The notes beneath the pieces are model-generated. The model saw only the letters and a list, made by a program, of their open reading frames with translations. It made no database searches and was not told where the DNA came from. Below are positions 5,528-28,457 of a stretch of 61,970 bases of DNA, one piece after another. This DNA is from an uncultured Clostridia bacterium. Lineage in GTDB: Bacteria > Bacillota > Clostridia > Christensenellales > UBA1242. Position 1 is the first letter of the stretch; each line of letters starts with the position of its first letter. The stretch covers positions 1-61,970 of the forward strand of contig CALVMX010000003.1 in assembly GCA_944349415.1 (NCBI GenBank), read 5' to 3'. The position numbers and the translations under genes were made by a program.

Positions 5528-6444
5528 TGAAAATTCTATTTTTTGGAACACCTCTTTTTGCTGAAATCGTGCTAAAAAAACTACTTGAAAAACATGAAGT
5601 TGTCGGCATTGTATGCCAACCAGACAAACCAGCAAATCGTGGAAAGAAAATGCAATCTCCAAATATTGTGAACATTGCAAAGGTTTTGAATATTCCTGTC
5701 TATCAATTTGAAAAATTGAAAGACCATATTGAAGATTTCAAGAAAATTAAATGTGATTTGTTTGTGACCGCTTCTTATGGAAAAATTCTTCCAAAAGAAG
5801 TGCTAGATCTTAAAATGTGCATAAATGTTCATCCGTCAATTCTACCGAAATATCGCGGAGCGACTCCAATACAGTCCGCTCTTTTAAACGGTGACAAAGT
5901 GACCGGTGTGACAATAATGCAAACCGCTGTTGGTATGGATGACGGAGATATAATTCTCCAAAAAGAAGTGAAAATTGAAAAAGAAGAGGATTACAACTCT
6001 CTTATGCCAAGACTTGCCGAGATTGGCGGAAATTTACTGCTTGATGCAATTGAGAAAATAGAGAGTGGCATTGCCATTTTCCAAAAGCAAGATGACAGCA
6101 AAGCCACTTTTGTTAAATTGATAAAAAAAGAGGACGGACTTTTAGATTTTAATGAAACCGCTGAAAGTCTAGTTAACAAAGTGCGTGCTTATGTCGAATT
6201 TCCTGTGGCTTTCTTTAATATCGGCGATGAGAGAATAAAAGTTTATAAAGCGGAAGCGGTGGAAGGTTTTGAAAATTTAGAAGTTGGCGAAATTTACACT
6301 TCAAAAAAGGAATTTGTTGTGAAAGCAAAAGACAAAGGCTTCAAAATTTTGAAATGTCAAGTCTCTGGTGGTAAAGTTTTGGATGTTAAAGACTTTTTAA
6401 ACGGACACAAAATAGAAGATAAAAAGGTGAATGAATGTTGTTAG
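5527..6444 (+). CDS. fmt: Methionyl-tRNA formyltransferase
   Basis: FFGTPLFA, NVHPSILPKYRGATPIQ, MDDGDI. Confidence 0.97.
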   Translation: MKILFFGTPLFAEIVLKKLLEKHEVVGIVCQPDKPANRGKKMQSPNIVNIAKVLNIPVYQFEKLKDHIEDFKKIKCDLFVTASYGKILPKEVLDLKMCINVHPSILPKYRGATPIQSALLNGDKVTGVTIMQTAVGMDDGDIILQKEVKIEKEEDYNSLMPRLAEIGGNLLLDAIEKIESGIAIFQKQDDSKATFVKLIKKEDGLLDFNETAESLVNKVRAYVEFPVAFFNIGDERIKVYKAEAVEGFENLEVGEIYTSKKEFVVKAKDKGFKILKCQVSGGKVLDVKDFLNGHKIEDKKVNECC

Positions 6445-7460
6445 ATTTGTCTTTAGAAGAGATAACAGAATATGCACTAAATTTAGGTTTACCAAAGTTT
6501 CGTGGTAAACAGATTTTTGATGCTCTCTATAAGGCAAAAACTCTTGACGAAATCTCAAATTTATCTAAAGATATTAAAGAAAAAATAAAAGATGACTATC
6601 CAAATTGGGAGATAGTCAAACTTTTGGAAAGCAAGGACGGCACAAAAAAAATGGCTCTTAAACTTTTGGACGGAAGTTTGGTGGAAAGTGTGCTTTTGTC
6701 ATATAAGTATGGCAACACTGTTTGTGTGTCCACTCAAGTTGGCTGTCGAATGGGGTGCAAGTTTTGTGCATCCACAATTGGTGGTTTGAAAAGGAACTTA
6801 TCGGCAGGAGAAATTCTTCTTCAAGTTCTTTTATACAACAAAATTTTAGGTGGAACAGAAAAAGAAAGAAAGGTGACAAATGTTGTTTTAATGGGCTGCG
6901 GCGAGCCACTTGATAACTATGAAAATGTCACAAAATTTTTAAAGTTAGTTTCAAGCGAAAATGGACTTAATATCAGCGAAAGAAATATCTCTCTTTCTAC
7001 CTGTGGGCTTGTAGAAAAGATAAAAAAGCTTGCAGATGACGGCTTTAAAGTTACACTCACAATTTCTCTTCACGCACCAAATGATGAAATACGAAAAAAG
7101 ATTATGCCGGTTGCCAATGCCTATAAAATTAAAGATATTTTGTCCGCTTGTGACTACTATTTTGAAAAAACAGGCAGGCGAGTTATTTTTGAATACGCTC
7201 TCATTGAAAATGTCAACTCAAGTGAAGAAAATATCAAGGAACTAGGAAAACTTTTGAAAGGTCGAAGTTGTCTTGTAAACTTCATTCCTCTTAACTCCAT
7301 AAAAGAACAAAATTTAATTGGTGTTTCAAGAAAACGAGCATATTTTTTATCCTCTCTTTTAGAAAAAGAAGGAGTAAATTCCACTGTCAGACGCACAATG
7401 GGCGAAGATATTGAAGGTGCTTGTGGACAACTTAGAAATAAACTTGGAGGTGCAACTTGA
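6435..7460 (+). CDS. rlmN: Dual-specificity RNA methyltransferase RlmN
   Basis: CVSTQVGCRMGCKFC radical-SAM motif, MGCGEP, GACGQL. Confidence 0.97.
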   Translation: MLLDLSLEEITEYALNLGLPKFRGKQIFDALYKAKTLDEISNLSKDIKEKIKDDYPNWEIVKLLESKDGTKKMALKLLDGSLVESVLLSYKYGNTVCVSTQVGCRMGCKFCASTIGGLKRNLSAGEILLQVLLYNKILGGTEKERKVTNVVLMGCGEPLDNYENVTKFLKLVSSENGLNISERNISLSTCGLVEKIKKLADDGFKVTLTISLHAPNDEIRKKIMPVANAYKIKDILSACDYYFEKTGRRVIFEYALIENVNSSEENIKELGKLLKGRSCLVNFIPLNSIKEQNLIGVSRKRAYFLSSLLEKEGVNSTVRRTMGEDIEGACGQLRNKLGGAT

Positions 7461-9049: not shown

Positions 9050-9712
9050 ATGGAACAAAAGATAAAAGTTATTGTTTTTGATTTTGATGACACATTATAT
9101 ATTGGAAATGTTTGGAAAAACCTTTATAACTATAAGATTGAAACCTTAGAGACCTTCCTTGATAAAGATGAAGCAAAGAGAATTCTTGATGAAAGTATAA
9201 GAATCAAAACAAGCAATTCAAATAATGGCAACATTAACAATGATAAAATTATTTTAGTTTTAGAGCAAAATGGTTATGACACATCAAAATATAAAAAAGC
9301 TGTCAATAAAAGCATTTATAAACATACGGGAGAAGTTGAACCTATTTTAAATGAATTTTTAGAAGAATTATCAAAAAAATATTCACTTTACTGTGTTTCA
9401 ATGTCTCATAAAGCATATTTAGACTTTTATTTTGAAAAATATAAAATTAAAACAAGTTACTTTAAAGCAATTATGTCTGCCGATATATACGCAGAAGATA
9501 AATCAAAAACTCCTATTTTAAGAAAAATTATCGAAAAAGAGCACATCTCTCCTAATGAACTTTTAATGATAGGTGATAGCCTTTCTCATGATATTGAGCC
9601 AGCAAAAAGAATAGATTGTCAAACTTTTCATTTTACAGAAAAAAATTTTAATCAGATTTATGACTTTTTTACAGCAAATGGAATTTTAAATAGTGAAAAA
9701 TATAAAAAATAA
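9050..9712 (+). CDS. HAD-superfamily hydrolase
   Basis: VFDFDDTL motif I; MIGDSLSHDIEPAK motif IV. Confidence 0.9.
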   Translation: MEQKIKVIVFDFDDTLYIGNVWKNLYNYKIETLETFLDKDEAKRILDESIRIKTSNSNNGNINNDKIILVLEQNGYDTSKYKKAVNKSIYKHTGEVEPILNEFLEELSKKYSLYCVSMSHKAYLDFYFEKYKIKTSYFKAIMSADIYAEDKSKTPILRKIIEKEHISPNELLMIGDSLSHDIEPAKRIDCQTFHFTEKNFNQIYDFFTANGILNSEKYKK

Positions 9713-20596: not shown

Positions 20597-20627
20597 AAAA
20601 AGTGGGTTAATTTTATCCACTTTTTTT
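20597..20627 (+). terminator. Terminator after ppdK (GTGG/CCAC type)
   Basis: AAAAAGTGG...TCCACTTTTTTT. Confidence 0.75.
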
Positions 20628-20740
20628 ATGAAATTGCAAAAGATATGTGGAAAGGCTATCCATTTCATACAATAATTGCTTGACAAAGAAAATATTTAAG
20701 ATTTATAATAAAACTAAGACTTATTAATTTTGGAGGGGAA

Positions 20741-22834
20741 ATGAGCGAAGATAACATTTTAGTAAGAACAGGCGAAACTTTTAAGGAACTAGGCGAGAAA
20801 ATAGGAGATTTTTTCAGCAATTTGAAGTATTCCATAACAAATTTTTGGGAAGAACATGAAATAACTGAAAAAATAAAAGAATTTTGGGAAAAAATAGGCG
20901 AGTGGTTCCAAAATGGTTGGGAGATGCTCAAAAAAGGACTTCAGTCGGTAGGCGAAGGCTTTGCTTGGCTAGGGCATAAGGTTGTAGAAATAGGTGGAAA
21001 AGCTGTTGAAGGTATTAAAACTGCCGCAATTTTTATCAGCGATAAGATAAAAACTTTTGCATCCTTTATTGGCGAAAGGTTTACGTCTGCTATTGGCTGG
21101 TTTAAAGAAAATTTACCAAAACTTGGAGACAAAATCAAAAGCGGTTTTTCAATAGCTGTTGAGAACACGAAAAAGTTTATAACAGGGGTTGCAGAAAAAT
21201 CTAGAGAGTTTTTCTCTACTGTTGGAGAAAAAATAAAGGAGTTTGCGGGCAATTTCGTCTCATCAATGAAAAATCTAAAAGATAAAATGGGTGAAAAATG
21301 GAAAGAAATTAGTCCGAAAATCAAAGATTTCTTCTCAAATGCCAAAGTTAAAATTATTGCAGGCGCAACAGCTGCTGTGGCTGGAGTTAAATTGGCTGCC
21401 AACAAGTTTAAAAATTATTTTGTTGGATTAAGAGAAAACATGAGTCAAAAATTTACCGCATTTAAAGAACATTCTCGCGAAAATAGAGAAAAGAAAAAAG
21501 AACTCAAATTAGAACGCCGTGAGGCAGCTAAAGAGAAAAAAGAAGAAAAACAACAAGCTAAGGAAGAAAGACGACAAAGTTTACAAGCTGAGCAAGAAGC
21601 AAGAAAAGCAGAGAGAAGTGAGCGTAATGCTGAAAGAAGATTAAAAAAAGAAAGAGAAAAAGCTGAAAGAGAAGCGGAGAGAGAGGCTGAACGAGAAGCT
21701 GAAAGAGAACGCAAACGTCAAGAAAAAGAAAATGATGAAATGCAAGAATATGAAGAGCCAACACAAAAAAGACCTAATAAAAAAGTGTTTGATTCTTCAG
21801 AAGATGACGAATTTAATGATGACTTTGAAGATTTAGACGAAGAAGACATCGTTACTCCTAAAGATATAAAAAATTATTGGGAAATAGTTAAAACTCAATT
21901 AGAAAGATCAAAAAATTTTGAAGCTTTAAGTAAATCGTTTGACGTTAAAAAATTCATGGAAAAAATGGATAAAATTATCGGCAAAACTTCAGGTTTCATT
22001 GCAAAACATGGAGATGATATGTTCGATAGTTTTGAAGAATGTTTAGCATTCATTCCAAATTATTATCCTACACTGAAAAATGATGTCTTAGATGTTTTTG
22101 ATATGTTGGACAAGTTAAGTAGCGACTTAGAATCAGATGACACCTTGAGTTTTAACGATAAGAAAACTATTCAAAAATTCCTTGACGACATGGATAATGA
22201 ATATTTTGATTATGGTTTTGGCTTTGACAAATTTATAAGAGAAGAATTAAAACAAAAATTAGAGGAAACTTCTGCTAGTTCTGAAGATGGTTCAAGCGAA
22301 CCAAAAGTTGAAGAGCCAACTGATGAAGGTATGGTTGATAATTTAAATCCAAGCGAAGATGGCCCTTTGACAAAACATGCTATTTTGATAGAAGAAAATA
22401 AAGGCAAAGGTGATCTTACAGAAATTGGAGTAGACGAAATTGATACTGAATTAGAATCATCTGACACTGCCACTCTTGATGATGTGTTTTATGGTAATAG
22501 TTTTAGCGACGAAAGTGATACTAAGTTATTTAATGATAAAGATTTCTTCAAAAATATAATAAATAATATTTATCTTCGTGGCAATTTAAGTAATAATGCT
22601 CTAGATTCTTCATTCTATCAAAGACCTGATAATGATAGCTATGTTGAAAGACCTGATTCGCCTTTCTATCAAAGACCAGATCATGACATTCATATCGAAG
22701 GACCGGACTCTCCATTTTATCAAAAACCAGACAATAAAAAATTTGTGCCGGAAGAAGATATGGATCCTGCTATTAGATATGTTATAGCCAATTTTTATAA
22801 AACACTTTCAAATAATGATAGCATACGTTTGTAA
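20741..22834 (+). CDS. Orphan 697-aa protein: amphipathic repeats, charged coiled coil, acidic C-terminus with 17-aa repeats
   Basis: Long ORF with SD GGAGG, TTGACA/TATAAT promoter (20680-20709) and its own terminator. Confidence 0.85.
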   Translation: MSEDNILVRTGETFKELGEKIGDFFSNLKYSITNFWEEHEITEKIKEFWEKIGEWFQNGWEMLKKGLQSVGEGFAWLGHKVVEIGGKAVEGIKTAAIFISDKIKTFASFIGERFTSAIGWFKENLPKLGDKIKSGFSIAVENTKKFITGVAEKSREFFSTVGEKIKEFAGNFVSSMKNLKDKMGEKWKEISPKIKDFFSNAKVKIIAGATAAVAGVKLAANKFKNYFVGLRENMSQKFTAFKEHSRENREKKKELKLERREAAKEKKEEKQQAKEERRQSLQAEQEARKAERSERNAERRLKKEREKAEREAEREAEREAERERKRQEKENDEMQEYEEPTQKRPNKKVFDSSEDDEFNDDFEDLDEEDIVTPKDIKNYWEIVKTQLERSKNFEALSKSFDVKKFMEKMDKIIGKTSGFIAKHGDDMFDSFEECLAFIPNYYPTLKNDVLDVFDMLDKLSSDLESDDTLSFNDKKTIQKFLDDMDNEYFDYGFGFDKFIREELKQKLEETSASSEDGSSEPKVEEPTDEGMVDNLNPSEDGPLTKHAILIEENKGKGDLTEIGVDEIDTELESSDTATLDDVFYGNSFSDESDTKLFNDKDFFKNIINNIYLRGNLSNNALDSSFYQRPDNDSYVERPDSPFYQRPDHDIHIEGPDSPFYQKPDNKKFVPEEDMDPAIRYVIANFYKTLSNNDSIRL

Positions 22835-22860: not shown

Positions 22861-22891
22861 AAAAAAGTGGACGAATATCATCCACTTTTTT
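22861..22891 (+). terminator. Terminator (GTGG/CCAC type)
   Basis: AAAAAAGTGGA-N9-TCCACTTTTTT. Confidence 0.8.
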
Positions 22892-23967: not shown

Positions 23968-24079
23968 ATTTAATAGCTCTCATATCCATTTTTGCCTAAA
24001 TTGAAGGTTTTTAAACTTTTTTGTTCTAATGGCGAAATTTTATCAGTATATTATAATAGTTTTTGATTTTGGAGGGGTT

Positions 24080-25600
24080 ATGTCTTTTGAAAAAAATAAG
24101 TTTCAGGTTGTGAAAAAGAAAAGATTACCTAAAAGCGAATTCAATGTGGAATGCAATATTCCGCTTGAAAACGAAATTGGCAAAATCTTTTCGGTATGTC
24201 ACTCTGCTCAAGCCGAAAATGCAGAAGTGATAAATGGTGCTGTGAATTATAGTGGCAGTATTGATATTTGTGTGCTATATTCCACAGTTGATGGCGAAAT
24301 TTGCACTCTCAATTCATCTTGTCCATTTTCTTCAAAGTTTGAAGATAGTCAAATTTCAGTTGGTGACAAAGTCGGAATAAAGTGCGAAGTGGTTAACTAT
24401 TCTATAGATAGTATGACAAGCTCTAATTTAAAAATTAACTGCACAGTTGAACAAACTGGAGTTGTTATTTCTTGCTGTGATGTAGAAACAATTATGCCTT
24501 TAGATGACGACATCTGCACAAAAAAAGAAGAAATATTTGTTAACACTTTTATCGGCGAAGCCAGCGAAATTTTTACGATGGATAGCGAAATTTCCATTAA
24601 AGAACCTATTCGAAAGGTTATACTTTGTGAAAGCCAAGTCTCTATTAAAGATGCGGAAAGTGGAATCAATTTTGTTTCAGTTTCCGGCGAAGTGGTAAAC
24701 AGAATTTTATATCTTACTGAAAATGATAGATTTGAAACAAGTTTTGTGACCGAAAACTTTAAAGAGGAAATTGAACTTGAAGGCGTAAGTCAAAATTCTA
24801 TTGTTGAAGCAAAGGCCTTAGTTAAACATAGCCAAGTGAAATGTGATGTCATAGAACAAGAAAAAGGTGTTTCGATTAAAATAAACGTTCCAGTTGAAAT
24901 TAAAGTATGTGCATTTGAGGAAAAACAAATTGATGTTATTAAAGATATCTACAGTCAAACGGAAGAACTTGAAGTCTCAACATCATCTTTTGAAATGACT
25001 AAGAGTATGCCATCTGATTATTTTGAAACAAAAATTGATGGGAATTTGACACTTGATGAGGATAAACCAAGAATTGATAAAGTTCTATTTGTTGCAGGAA
25101 CTGAACTTTCACTTTCCAATGCCTATATCCAAAATGGCGAGATTTTTGTGGAAGGTGTGGCAAAAGCCAATGTAGTTTATCTTAATGATGAAGAGAATTC
25201 CAACAATTCAGTTGTTGTAGAAGTTCCGTTTGTGGTTTCTGATAAAACTACAGCACCTTGTGAAAATCCAAAAATTTCAGTTAGTGCAGTGCTATATGAT
25301 GTCGATGTGGTGGCCAAGAAAGGCAGAGAACTTTTTTTTGACGGCAAATTAAAAGTAAGAGTGGAATATGACTGCGAGGAGGTTTCTGCAGTAATTAGTA
25401 GTGTGGAAGCTAAAGGCGAGACAATAGAACGTGACTGCAGTGTTGAACTAGTTTATGCTAAAAGCGGAACAGAGGCATGGGACATAGCTAAATTATATAG
25501 AGTAAGTGAAGAAATGGTGCAAATTCAAAATCCTGAAATAACTTTTCCTCTTCAAGAAGATACAAGTATTGTTTTATATTTTCAAAAAGTTAAGAAATAA
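24080..25600 (+). CDS. sipL: SPOCS (DUF3794)-repeat coat morphogenetic protein with degenerate C-terminal LysM (SipL-like)
   Basis: Three beta-rich acidic repeats, WDIAKLY LysM remnant, next to veg and spoIIR; start moved to ATG 24080 after GGAGGGG. Confidence 0.8.
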   Translation: MSFEKNKFQVVKKKRLPKSEFNVECNIPLENEIGKIFSVCHSAQAENAEVINGAVNYSGSIDICVLYSTVDGEICTLNSSCPFSSKFEDSQISVGDKVGIKCEVVNYSIDSMTSSNLKINCTVEQTGVVISCCDVETIMPLDDDICTKKEEIFVNTFIGEASEIFTMDSEISIKEPIRKVILCESQVSIKDAESGINFVSVSGEVVNRILYLTENDRFETSFVTENFKEEIELEGVSQNSIVEAKALVKHSQVKCDVIEQEKGVSIKINVPVEIKVCAFEEKQIDVIKDIYSQTEELEVSTSSFEMTKSMPSDYFETKIDGNLTLDEDKPRIDKVLFVAGTELSLSNAYIQNGEIFVEGVAKANVVYLNDEENSNNSVVVEVPFVVSDKTTAPCENPKISVSAVLYDVDVVAKKGRELFFDGKLKVRVEYDCEEVSAVISSVEAKGETIERDCSVELVYAKSGTEAWDIAKLYRVSEEMVQIQNPEITFPLQEDTSIVLYFQKVKK

Positions 25601-25745
25601 TTAAATATATTAAATTATATAAATAAAGGCTGAATTTTTCAGCTTTTATTTTTTGTTTTGAAATTTCCATAAAAATTAATAAAAAACAACAATTTTTTCC
25701 ATTTTTTTTATATTTTTCGGTCAAAAATCAATTTGTGAGGTTATT

Positions 25746-26270
25746 ATGAAATACATTTTGTCTTCTGTAAGTGTTATTGCGATAATTTTAATTCTAATAT
25801 TTTGTGGAACGACAACCGCAAGTGCTGAAAGTGAATATTTTCGCATCCATATAAGAGCAAATTCAAATTCGGCTGTGGATCAAAATGTGAAATATCTTGT
25901 TAAAGATGAAGTTGTGGAATATCTTATTCCTCTTTTAAGTGAAGCCGAAACAAAAGATGAGGCAGAAAGAATTATGAATGAAAATTTAAAAAATATTGAA
26001 AGTGTGGCAGATACTGTTTTGTCGGCAAACGGTTTTTCTTATAAATCAAAAGCTTATATTTCTTTCGAAGAGTTTCCAACCAGAGAATATGATGATTTAG
26101 TTTTGGAAGAAGGTTTTTATGATGCTCTTATTTTAGCTCTAGGCACTGGCGAAGGAGACAACTGGTGGTGTGTGGTTTATCCACCGTTTTGTTTTCTCGA
26201 AACAAAAAATTCCGAAAATTATGTTTATATTTCAAAAATTTGGGAAATTATAAATAATATCATAAATTAG
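25746..26270 (+). CDS. spoIIR: Stage II sporulation protein R
   Basis: FRIHIRANSNS..DQNVKYLVKD; GEGDNWWCVVYPPFC. Confidence 0.96.
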   Translation: MKYILSSVSVIAIILILIFCGTTTASAESEYFRIHIRANSNSAVDQNVKYLVKDEVVEYLIPLLSEAETKDEAERIMNENLKNIESVADTVLSANGFSYKSKAYISFEEFPTREYDDLVLEEGFYDALILALGTGEGDNWWCVVYPPFCFLETKNSENYVYISKIWEIINNIIN

Positions 26271-26278
26271 GAGGGGAA

Positions 26279-26962
26279 ATGAAAAAAAGAATTTTTGCCC
26301 TGATCTCTGTTCTAGTTTTTATAGTAGCAGGGGTGAGCATAACAACAATTATGATAGGTACATACCATACATATCATGCGGAAAGTGTGTCAGCGGCTTC
26401 ACTTTCCACAAGTCAAATTCGTCTTGTGCAACAAAGACTAAAAAATTGGGGATACTATACTGGCAATGTGGACGGTATATATGGTAGTAAAACGAGAAGT
26501 GCTGTTCGTAAATTCCAACAAAACAATGGACTTGCTGTGGACGGAATAGTTGGACCTAACACAGCAGCCGCTATTGGTTTCTATCTTGCAAGCGACGACG
26601 ATTCCGTCTCTAATAATGACTTATATCTTCTTGCAAAATGTGTTTATGCAGAAGCACGTGGAGAAAGTTATGTTGGACAAGTTGCAGTGGCAGCGGTAAT
26701 TTTAAACCGCGTAGAAAGTGAAAAATTTCCAAATACCATTGCAGGTGTCATCTACCAACCATACGCTTTTACAGCAGTAACTGATGGGCAAATTAATCTT
26801 GAGCCAGATCAAACAGCTTACAATGCTGCTCGTGATGCCTTAAATGGCTGGGATCCTACATATGGTAGTTTGTATTATTATAATCCGGCAACAGCAACAA
26901 GTTCATGGATTTGGTCAAGACAAACAGTTGTGACAATTGGGAAGCATGTATTTGCAATATAG
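26279..26962 (+). CDS. sleB: Spore cortex-lytic enzyme
   Basis: PG-binding VDGIYG..T domain plus Hydrolase_2 (AEARGE, FPNTIAGVIYQPYAF). Confidence 0.95.
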   Translation: MKKRIFALISVLVFIVAGVSITTIMIGTYHTYHAESVSAASLSTSQIRLVQQRLKNWGYYTGNVDGIYGSKTRSAVRKFQQNNGLAVDGIVGPNTAAAIGFYLASDDDSVSNNDLYLLAKCVYAEARGESYVGQVAVAAVILNRVESEKFPNTIAGVIYQPYAFTAVTDGQINLEPDQTAYNAARDALNGWDPTYGSLYYYNPATATSSWIWSRQTVVTIGKHVFAI

Positions 26963-26972
26963 GAGGTAAAAA

Positions 26973-28457
26973 ATGAGTAATAATGAAAAAACACAAAATA
27001 ATGCACAAAATTTGCAAAAAAATGCTAATTTAAATGCAAAAAATAGCAATTATGTTGAACAAATTCAACAAGAAAGTAGACAGCAAAGAAGAAACAGAGA
27101 ACGTTTAGAAAGAAAAAACAAAGCTAAAATAAAAAAATATAAAAGTGCAGTAATAGGTCTCACTGTCGCAGTTAGTATCTTGGCAGTAACAACAGCGGGA
27201 CTTGGAATTGCCTATGGAGTTACTCAATCACAGGCAAATACATATGGCACTCAACTTGAAAGTGTGTATCAACAAAATTATTATGACTTAGTTGACAATG
27301 TAAACAATGCAGATATGGAGATAAGTAAACTTGTCAATTCAGACGATACAATATATCAAAAGAAGCTACTTCTCGAAATTGCAGATGCAGCAAAAAGTAT
27401 GCAAAACAATATGTCCATGCTTCCTCTTACTGGTGAAAATGTGCTAGACAGTGTAAGATTTGTAAATCAACTTTCTGGTTACACTCAGACATTGGAAGAA
27501 AAAGTGGCAAATGGAGGAACTCTTTCAGATGAAGATGTAGAAACTTTAAAAGAACTTCATGAAACACTTATAAGTATGAAACAAAATCTAAACAGAATGT
27601 CAGAAAATATGCGCGACGGTTATAGCATTCTACTTTCTAGCAACGAAGCAAATGGAGAACTCAACACCTTTACAGTTGATTTTAACCAAATAAAAGCTAT
27701 GGATGTAGATTATCCATCTATGATTTATGACGGACCATTTTCAGATTCTGTTGTAAATTCAAAAATCAAAGGAGTTAGCGGTAGCGAGGTATCTAAAGAA
27801 GATGCTGTCAAAGAAATTGAAGAAGTTTTTAAAGATGTAAGTTCGATAAATTACGAAGGTGAGACAAATGGGAACTTTAAGACTTATAACTATTCTCTTA
27901 TGACTACCGATTCACAAGACCTTTATGTCCAAGTTTTAAAACAAGGTGGGCACATTTTAACGGTAAGCGGACAAAATCTTTCTGATGTAAAAAATATTGA
28001 TATGGAAAATGGCGCTAAAATTGCTCTAGATTTTGCCAAAAGAAATGGCATAGAAAATGCAGAAATAGTTTGGCAAGAAGAATTAAATAATCAAGCCTAT
28101 TTCAACATAGCTCCAGTGGTTGACAATGTTATAATTTATCCAGAACTTGTGAAAGTTAAAGTGGACATGGAATATGGAAATGTCATTGGCTATGATGCTA
28201 TCACGTATTTTACAAATCACACATCTCGCGACCTTAGCGGTGCTAGTGATTTGAATGTTACTCTTCCGTCTGGTTTTACTTTAAAAGAAAAACGTCTAGT
28301 GCTTGCTCCACTTGATTACAATAGAGAAGTTTTGTGTTATGAGTATAGGGCAGAAAAAGAAGGAATAACATATTATTTCTACTTCAATGCTAAGACTGGA
28401 AAAGAAGAAAATATTTTGAAGGTTGTGGAAACCAACGATAGTTCTAAATTAATGTAG
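26973..28457 (+). CDS. ypeB: Germination protein YpeB (PepSY)
   Basis: One TM, LESVYQQNYYDL, YPSMIYDGPFSD; follows sleB. Confidence 0.93.
   Translation: MSNNEKTQNNAQNLQKNANLNAKNSNYVEQIQQESRQQRRNRERLERKNKAKIKKYKSAVIGLTVAVSILAVTTAGLGIAYGVTQSQANTYGTQLESVYQQNYYDLVDNVNNADMEISKLVNSDDTIYQKKLLLEIADAAKSMQNNMSMLPLTGENVLDSVRFVNQLSGYTQTLEEKVANGGTLSDEDVETLKELHETLISMKQNLNRMSENMRDGYSILLSSNEANGELNTFTVDFNQIKAMDVDYPSMIYDGPFSDSVVNSKIKGVSGSEVSKEDAVKEIEEVFKDVSSINYEGETNGNFKTYNYSLMTTDSQDLYVQVLKQGGHILTVSGQNLSDVKNIDMENGAKIALDFAKRNGIENAEIVWQEELNNQAYFNIAPVVDNVIIYPELVKVKVDMEYGNVIGYDAITYFTNHTSRDLSGASDLNVTLPSGFTLKEKRLVLAPLDYNREVLCYEYRAEKEGITYYFYFNAKTGKEENILKVVETNDSSKLM

Follow-up and report, generated by a model that had tools for sequence, protein, structure and literature searches.

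In the genome of an uncultured member of the Clostridia, a stretch of 61,970 nucleotides (contig CALVMX010000003.1, called the window below) encodes on its forward strand, at 20741-22834, a 697-residue protein that belongs to an undescribed, genus-restricted family joining a known kind of repeat to a domain without detectable relatives. The open reading frame (ORF), the longest in that interval and starting with ATG, is a real gene under selection. Our tentative reading, which we hold to be possible but short of probable, is that its product is a native, constitutively transcribed cytoplasmic modular scaffold acting as a peripheral tether or adaptor. All full-length members of the family have the same layout, in which an N-terminal repeat domain (the N-domain) is followed by a variable linker, a conserved middle domain and a variable acidic tail.

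The evidence for selection comes from a domain-by-domain comparison with P0002, an orthologue that shares 54% identity and the same synteny. The ratio of nonsynonymous to synonymous substitution rates (dN/dS) is 0.063 in the N-domain and 0.16 in the middle domain, with values of 0.40 in the linker and 0.47-0.85 in the tail. Diversifying selection was considered as the cause of the divergence from P0002 and rejected, since dN/dS lies below 1 throughout and the synonymous rate is equally high (dS 1.26 for the 697-residue gene vs 1.15 for sipL, a downstream neighbour); the comparable dS indicates that the low overall identity reflects relaxed disordered segments. Recent horizontal acquisition was ruled out by the native GC content of the gene (33.0%, vs 33.1% for the genome) and its native codon usage, which falls at the 91st percentile of the ORFs of the genome.

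The initial annotation of this DNA had called the protein an orphan. This is wrong, as at least nine relatives of 521-747 residues and 27-58% identity have the same layout. Word-indexed protein searches with the whole protein, the N-domain region or a family profile returned only P0002 because low-complexity words swamped the candidate list, whereas an exhaustive profile search with residues 366-697 recovered six further representatives of 521-747 residues; genome searches added P0010 and a variant, P0011. Family members occur in 6 of 150 sampled species of the genus, and about 380 genomes of other genera in the order gave only one weak match, restricted to the N-domain. A pattern scan of 185,579 species genomes found three loci, all of them matching genus members already found. 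No match to the family was obtained by tblastn against 50,697 phage records, no relatives were recovered from IMG/VR with either domain or from a scan of JGI metagenomes, and a Protein Atlas search gave scores of 0.75 or less that are usable as leads only. Five members (P0001, P0002, P0005, P0008 and P0009) share a slot beside ppdK and/or just upstream of veg-sipL, including P0008 and P0009, the most divergent representatives from the profile search; other members adjoin serS/ftsA, rpmE or other genes. Such a distribution is consistent with a gene long present in the genus that changes rapidly, has frequently been lost and occasionally moves.

The N-domain (residues 1-245; 20741..21475, forward strand) consists of cationic amphipathic helices with a hendecad repeat marked by Phe and Trp, of the tape-measure or class-A type. 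It carries a charge of +8 and an isoelectric point of 9.35, and ends in an A/G/V-rich helix with a K-x-K-I-x-A-G motif. All four of the amphipathic 11-residue units quoted in the initial annotation are present, and the 11-residue period greatly exceeds chance: at a lag of 11 the hydropathy autocorrelation reaches 0.47 vs -0.005 +/- 0.064 in 1000 shuffles (z 7.4), and 10 [FW]-x10-[FW] pairs are seen where 3.6 +/- 1.6 are expected. Across all nine family N-domains the lag-11 z score is 3.6-8.2. AlphaFold2 (AF2) predicts helices at residues 6-34, 38-124 and 134-222, with a predicted local distance difference test score (pLDDT) of 70-89, and a fourth at 224-314 that runs on into the adjoining ER/K segment. 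The two long helices, 38-124 and 134-222 (87-89 residues, ~13 nm), each have one coherent hydrophobic F/W/I stripe with an angle of ~98-100 degrees per residue (z 6.0 and 5.3, respectively). Lysine and arginine lie at the polar/non-polar interface (78% at 45-135 degrees from the hydrophobic centre) and acidic residues at the centre of the polar face (72% at 135-180 degrees), giving an angular separation of 40.9 degrees vs -10.1 +/- 9.9 in shuffles. Physically, the N-domain is an apolipoprotein-type class-A amphipathic helix.

The N-domain shares with the exchangeable apolipoproteins (ApoA-I, ApoA-IV, ApoE and apolipophorin-III) class-A amphipathic helices built of 11/22-mers, which can assemble into elongated bundles. 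Unlike the apolipoproteins, the 697-residue protein is cytoplasmic and has no signal peptide, and its N-domain is F/W-rich and not punctuated by proline. When the family profile was compared with the PDB, weak matches were obtained to ApoA-IV (the best, E 2.5e-4), a BAR domain, apoLp-III, ApoA-I, colicins and synuclein. Pfam matches to YtxH, ApoLp-III, Apolipoprotein and Synuclein all lie below the curated cut-offs (PF01442, 23.9-26.9 bits vs a gathering threshold of 90; PF07464, 22.5 vs 36.3). A PDB sequence search with the whole protein gave nothing meaningful, and Foldseek comparison of the whole model with the PDB and BFVD gave nothing below E 0.7. The likeness to apolipoproteins is almost certainly analogy, not homology. 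As had been noted at the outset, the protein contains neither a transmembrane (TM) helix (maximum Kyte-Doolittle 19-residue mean, 1.33) nor a signal peptide, its N-terminus being hydrophilic.

The matches of the N-domain to siphophage tape-measure proteins are stronger than those to apolipoproteins. Tape-measure profiles of the PHROG collection match the 697-residue protein with E 1e-9, and the best match in the family reaches 2.8e-15; many of these profiles are matched by five to eight of the nine family N-domains. One profile, phrog_1272, is promiscuous: it matches 9 of 14 well-known control genomes, three of them archaeal, and 56 of the 150 genomes of the genus, for the most part in coiled-coil-like stretches. 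Weak matches to this profile are no evidence for a tape-measure protein. Because of this promiscuity, the N-domain was set against a bona fide tape-measure protein of the genus (locus L060, from a prophage in G050). The Smith-Waterman score of 122 exceeds those of full shuffles (46.8 +/- 7.1, z 10.6) and of phase-preserving shuffles (61.6, z 6.9), and compares with 86.6 +/- 13 for shuffles of 11-residue blocks, while blastp against the same protein gave E 5.5e-8 to 3e-3 in six of eight members. The repeat region of the L060 protein has the same helix geometry as the N-domain. In both kinds of repeat the period is 11 residues and is marked by F/W, an unbroken hydrophobic stripe runs at ~98 degrees per residue, lysine lies at the interface with acidic residues on top, and the net charge is positive. 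Tape-measure proteins with 11-residue W/F repeats have been documented, Clostridium prophages included (Belcaid et al. 2011, PMC3271669). Judged from these alignments, the likeness is real, mainly at the level of the repeat unit and with some collinearity, and the N-domain is of tape-measure-repeat type, by descent or convergence.

The similarity is nevertheless confined to the repeat region. The N-domain is only 245 residues long and lacks the C-terminal parts of tape-measure proteins as well as their TM-like hydrophobic block, the maximum 19-residue hydropathy mean being 1.33 vs 2.63 in the tape-measure protein of the genus. Its [FW]-x10-[FW] runs are short (maximum 3, counted from aromatic positions) relative to the published pattern of at least 7 (PMC3271669). 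Unlike tape-measure genes, the gene is fused to an unrelated acidic domain, has a housekeeping-type promoter and lies outside any tail morphogenesis module; its neighbours are ysxC and ppdK upstream and a bPH_2 membrane protein gene, veg, sipL, spoIIR, sleB and ypeB downstream, with no phage genes among them. A tape-measure profile search of the organism's own genome at 1e-5 gave no match, and the genome holds no paralogue of the protein. The initial annotation had set its lipid-surface proposal against homology to a tape-measure fragment; the likeness to tape-measure repeats does exceed that to apolipoproteins, yet the gene lacks the other defining features of such genes and is neither a tape-measure fragment nor a prophage remnant.

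The spacer (residues 246-369; 21476..21847, forward strand) is ER/K-rich and predicted to form a single helix to about residue 314, followed by an acidic linker; AF2 models the helix as residues 224-314 and residues 316-369 as disordered. Residues 246-335 comprise 31% E, 17% K and 20% R (~68% E+K+R), and hydrophobic residues make up 11% of the linker as delimited by residues 246-378, where a window of 30 residues can reach 80% E/K/R. The highly charged stretch quoted earlier, EREAEREAERERKR, is indeed present in the protein. Single alpha-helix spacers of the ER/K type occur in myosin X and caldesmon, and the composition and AF2 helix of this allele fit such a domain, but the family does not conserve it: of eight aligned members, five contain ER/K-rich stretches (63% E/K/R or more over 30 residues), and the remaining linkers are acidic or mixed. 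Linker length ranges from 41 to 193 residues and its chemistry varies, whereas both flanking domains are conserved; a spacer would be expected to vary in this way.

The middle domain (residues 370-505; 21848..22255, forward strand) is compact, acidic and all-alpha, bears W380 and the motifs EECLA and GFG-x-D, and is conserved in 10 proteins. Modelled alone, it is predicted with a pLDDT of 90.1 and a predicted template modelling score of 0.85 to contain six main helices. Its sequence has no match in Pfam, NCBIfam or the PDB, and Foldseek found no neighbour in the PDB (best E 4.9), which makes the predicted structure a candidate for a new fold.

By alignment and AF2, the tail (residues 506-697; 22256..22834, forward strand) is acidic and mostly disordered, with three conserved islands on the same strand: L-x-[ED]-[IV]-G (22415-22429), I-I-N-N-I-Y (22556-22573) and a C-terminal helix (22766-22810). 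The three Tyr-containing repeats described earlier are there as 17-residue units (22604..22756, forward strand) with FYQ[RK]PD at residues 625, 642 and 659, and Tandem Repeats Finder reports a 51-nucleotide unit in 2.5 copies at 22607-22735 with 74% matches. The repeats belong to this allele only, being absent from the 54% orthologue and from all other family members. Two relatives have tail tandem repeats of their own, with units containing L-P-[HY]-I-[EQ] (P0004, residues ~545-585; P0006, ~625-660); as these are unrelated to the FYQRPD units, tail repeats arise independently in each lineage. A 243-residue database fragment of the protein, P0003, differs at a single position, Leu to Pro at residue 612, directly after the conserved N-N-I-Y motif; Pro is also found there in P0005 and P0006. 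The whole protein is a charge dipole, and the family conserves this: the N-domain carries a net positive charge in seven of eight members, and every member has a negative middle domain and tail.

The gene has the signals of an independent transcription unit. A perfect sigma-A-type promoter, TTGACA-18-TATAAT (12 of 12 matches), lies at 20680..20709, confirming the consensus promoter named in the initial annotation, and a ribosome-binding site, GGAGGG, precedes the ATG at 20732..20737. Transcription is predicted to begin ~7 nucleotides past 20709. The upstream boundary is marked by the ppdK terminator hairpin, read from the sequence as a GTGG..CCAC stem with a T-run at 20602..20627, and the gene has its own terminator hairpin, GTGGA..TCCAC with a T-run, at 22867..22891, all on the forward strand. 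Near-consensus sigma-A promoters are found 49-65 nucleotides before the ATG in all eight distinct full-length members, with 10-12 of 12 consensus matches and an extended TG in several, and no conserved CATA-type box is found upstream of these eight. Together these point to constitutive and probably strong vegetative expression as the best inference. The octamer CATACAAT, at 20666..20673 on the forward strand, is present as first noted, but a role as a sporulation-type -10 box is not supported: three copies occur in the window vs 2.64 expected, and it is not found upstream of orthologues. We consider it a chance match, and a sporulation sigma-E/K promoter was rejected in favour of the sigma-A consensus.

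Metatranscriptome contigs from chicken gut match the body of the gene, with one mismatch at most, and break off at the gaps between genes, as do those of ppdK, the bPH_2 gene and sipL, which is consistent with transcription of the gene, short of proof. In the same material (run X25), contigs of sipL and sleB-ypeB (window 24029-28457, holding sipL, spoIIR, sleB and ypeB) have a depth comparable to that of ppdK, suggesting that the organism sporulates actively in the gut.

Several lines of evidence suggest how such a protein might work. The N-domain would fix it to a surface both anionic and hydrophobic, of which the cytoplasmic side of the cell membrane is the likeliest, and may also bundle with itself; the spacer would keep the acidic domain away from the anchoring surface, and the acidic domain and tail motifs could then recruit partners, so that the protein would serve as a peripheral tether or adaptor. 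The N-domain itself probably descended from, or converged on, the repeat region of a siphophage tape-measure protein. We count in favour of this reading the selection on the gene, its native codon usage and GC, the transcription contigs, the sigma-A promoters and the helix geometry, together with the charge dipole, the spacer of 41-193 residues between conserved domains, and best PDB profile matches that are lipid-surface or membrane-inserting helical proteins (ApoA-IV, a BAR domain, apoLp-III, colicins). A relative in G042 also counts (L054, G042:C4, 7665-11668, minus strand), where an 882-residue ORF carries the middle domain only, with a coiled coil and a long region rich in Pro and acidic residues before it and a tail rich in P, Q and Y after it, and an overlapping upstream ORF in a different frame has a TM-like helix (Kyte-Doolittle 19-residue mean, 1.84). 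The two ORFs may be one frameshifted gene in this metagenome-assembled genome; the arrangement suggests interchangeable anchors, though the ORFs lie in different frames of such an assembly.

Other observations weigh against a tether or adaptor. A genuine tape-measure protein has the same helix geometry, so that geometry is no proof of membrane binding, and AF2 packs the N-domain helices with fair confidence (pLDDT 70-89), so the stripes may be buried in a bundle. No informative partner gene backs such a function, and no structural neighbour was found for the whole model in the PDB or BFVD or for the middle domain in the PDB. The presence of the family in only 6 of 150 species implies a dispensable role, unusual for a core scaffold. 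Among the functions put forward in the initial annotation, a surface-binding scaffold remains the best reading because of the class-A geometry and the weak ApoA-IV, apoLp-III, ApoA-I and synuclein matches, while the effector alternative is unlikely and the octamer is a chance match.

The main alternative, unlikely but plausible enough to set out, takes the tape-measure likeness at face value: a constitutively made N-domain would co-assemble with, or titrate, a siphophage tape-measure protein, tail chaperone or tube protein, and the bulky acidic C-terminal half would then stop tail polymerisation, so that tail-less particles are released. The PHROG matches (best E 2.8e-15), the Smith-Waterman comparison with the same-genus tape-measure protein (z 10.6 and 6.9) and the helix geometry, identical to that of the L060 repeat region, count in its favour, and the patchy distribution (6 of 150 species), fast evolution and strong constitutive promoter agree with it, as do the at least four to five chromosomal slots occupied by members, some beside accessory genes such as one for an Mrr-type nuclease. 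There is also a precedent in Tab and Tai, tail-assembly-blocking defence proteins that are intracellular, constitutively expressed and directed at the tape-measure protein or tail tip (PMC10884400, PMC11364771). These are small and encoded in prophages or satellites (PMC10884400, PMC11364771), and the analogy of function is conceivable but purely hypothetical, no relation in sequence or structure having been tested or seen. The gene, moreover, lies outside any prophage, satellite or recognisable defence island, with ppdK, veg and sipL as neighbours, and the most divergent members keep the ppdK/veg-sipL slot, which looks like vertical descent with losses and not like mobility. PADLOC-DB yielded no match beyond weak ones to the ZorA coiled-coil tail (E 5e-5 to 5e-3, three of six members), no relatives were found in IMG/VR, and the tape-measure PHROG profile is promiscuous, reaching 9 of 14 control genomes, archaea among them. 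The full proposition, that the protein is a chromosomal, constitutive tape-measure mimic in which an exapted repeat domain and a new acidic domain poison siphophage tail assembly, we regard as somewhat less likely still; if true, it would be a single-gene, structure-mimicry type of defence that has not yet been described.

It is also conceivable, although we think it improbable and suggested by synteny only, that the mother cell lays the protein on the forespore membrane or coat, where the amphipathic domain would hold it to the membrane and the acidic tail, with its Tyr and Pro residues, would form coat matrix. P0001, P0002, P0005, P0008 and P0009 lie just upstream of veg-sipL-spoIIR-sleB-ypeB where the contig reaches that far, the same metatranscriptome contains sporulation transcripts, and the absence of a signal peptide, the acidic, fast-evolving nature of the protein, the lineage-specific Pro/Tyr/His repeats of its tail and the P/Q/Y-rich tail end of the G042 relative would all suit a spore protein. 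However, all members have a sigma-A consensus promoter and no conserved sigma-E/K-type box, and sipL-spoIIR-sleB recur in relatives without the family gene, which was found in only 6 of the 150 species. The remaining members adjoin serS/ftsA, rpmE or further housekeeping genes. No SPOCS, LysM or known coat domain of the kind that marks spore coat morphogenetic proteins (SpoVID, SipL, SafA, CotE type) was found.

A protective role, in which abundant helices coat membranes, inclusions or proteins under stress or desiccation in the manner of a hydrophilin, phasin or YtxH-like protein, appears quite improbable. The 11-mer repeat layout, strong promoter and codon usage would be in keeping with it, as would the Pfam matches to YtxH, ApoLp-III, Apolipoprotein and Synuclein, but all of these fall under the curated cut-offs, and the conserved folded middle domain and tail motifs would be left unexplained.

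A secreted or host-directed effector whose Tyr repeats are phosphorylated or bound by host proteins, as suggested in the initial annotation, is very improbable. The three FYQ[RK]PD units in a disordered tail and the gut habitat of the organism might invite this idea, but the repeats are missing from the 54% orthologue and every other member, in a tail with dN/dS of 0.85, and there is no signal peptide, no TM helix and no secretion-system gene among the neighbours examined; allele-specific repeats and nothing indicating secretion make an effector unlikely. The chance that the gene is a decaying prophage tape-measure remnant without function of its own is minimal: the repeats resemble tape-measure proteins, but two domains are under purifying selection, the promoter is conserved, codon usage is native, there is evidence of transcription, and neither phage genes nearby nor a tape-measure match in its own genome are found.

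The source genome, of an uncultured spore-forming Clostridia genus, measures 1.18 Mb and is rated 100% complete, and the gene occurs nearly unchanged in at least 20 runs, mostly chicken-gut metagenomes, from ~15 studies. In close relatives the slot between ppdK and the bPH_2 gene is empty or holds an unrelated ORF of 300 residues, and genes appear to turn over there. That ORF, found in the nearest species representative (96% identity in PpdK; L005, G046:C11, reverse strand, original coordinates 5867-6769), is served by a promoter of its own and matches nothing in Pfam. In G112 (L051, G112:C3, 3843-3862; L037 2997-3008), the family gene ends ~10 nucleotides before the bPH_2 start with only a ribosome-binding site between them, and the two likely form an operon; in the window, unlike G112, a terminator and a separate promoter intervene. 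Near the family gene copy of G139, which is divergent from an ftsA-like gene, an Mrr-type restriction endonuclease gene is found beside serS (L050, G139:C1, 4550-5728).

The two hairpins that flank the gene in the window (20602-20627 and 22867-22891) have a stem in common, GTGG(A)...(T)CCAC, flanked by an A-run and a T-run, and the same shared stem is present in the orthologous contig (L003, 7090-7110 and about 9350-9375). The pair could have arisen if part of the ppdK terminator was duplicated on arrival of the gene, or could simply reflect the local style of terminator. A mobile-element footprint was considered and set aside, as the hairpins look like ordinary terminators and terminators differ between species.

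The family would be a clear example of a host protein built in part from a phage tape-measure-type repeat, used there either to anchor it to a membrane or surface or as a decoy. It also carries a caution for annotation, in that tape-measure PHROG profiles match non-phage helical proteins, archaeal ones included, and a profile match alone is insufficient. The middle domain, predicted with confidence to fold and lacking both a sequence family and a neighbour in the PDB, is a candidate for a new fold. The host is an abundant, uncultured Clostridia genus of the chicken gut with genomes of ~1 Mb, and an accessory protein that is strongly expressed from so small a genome is probably of consequence for phage pressure, the organisation of the envelope or sporulation.

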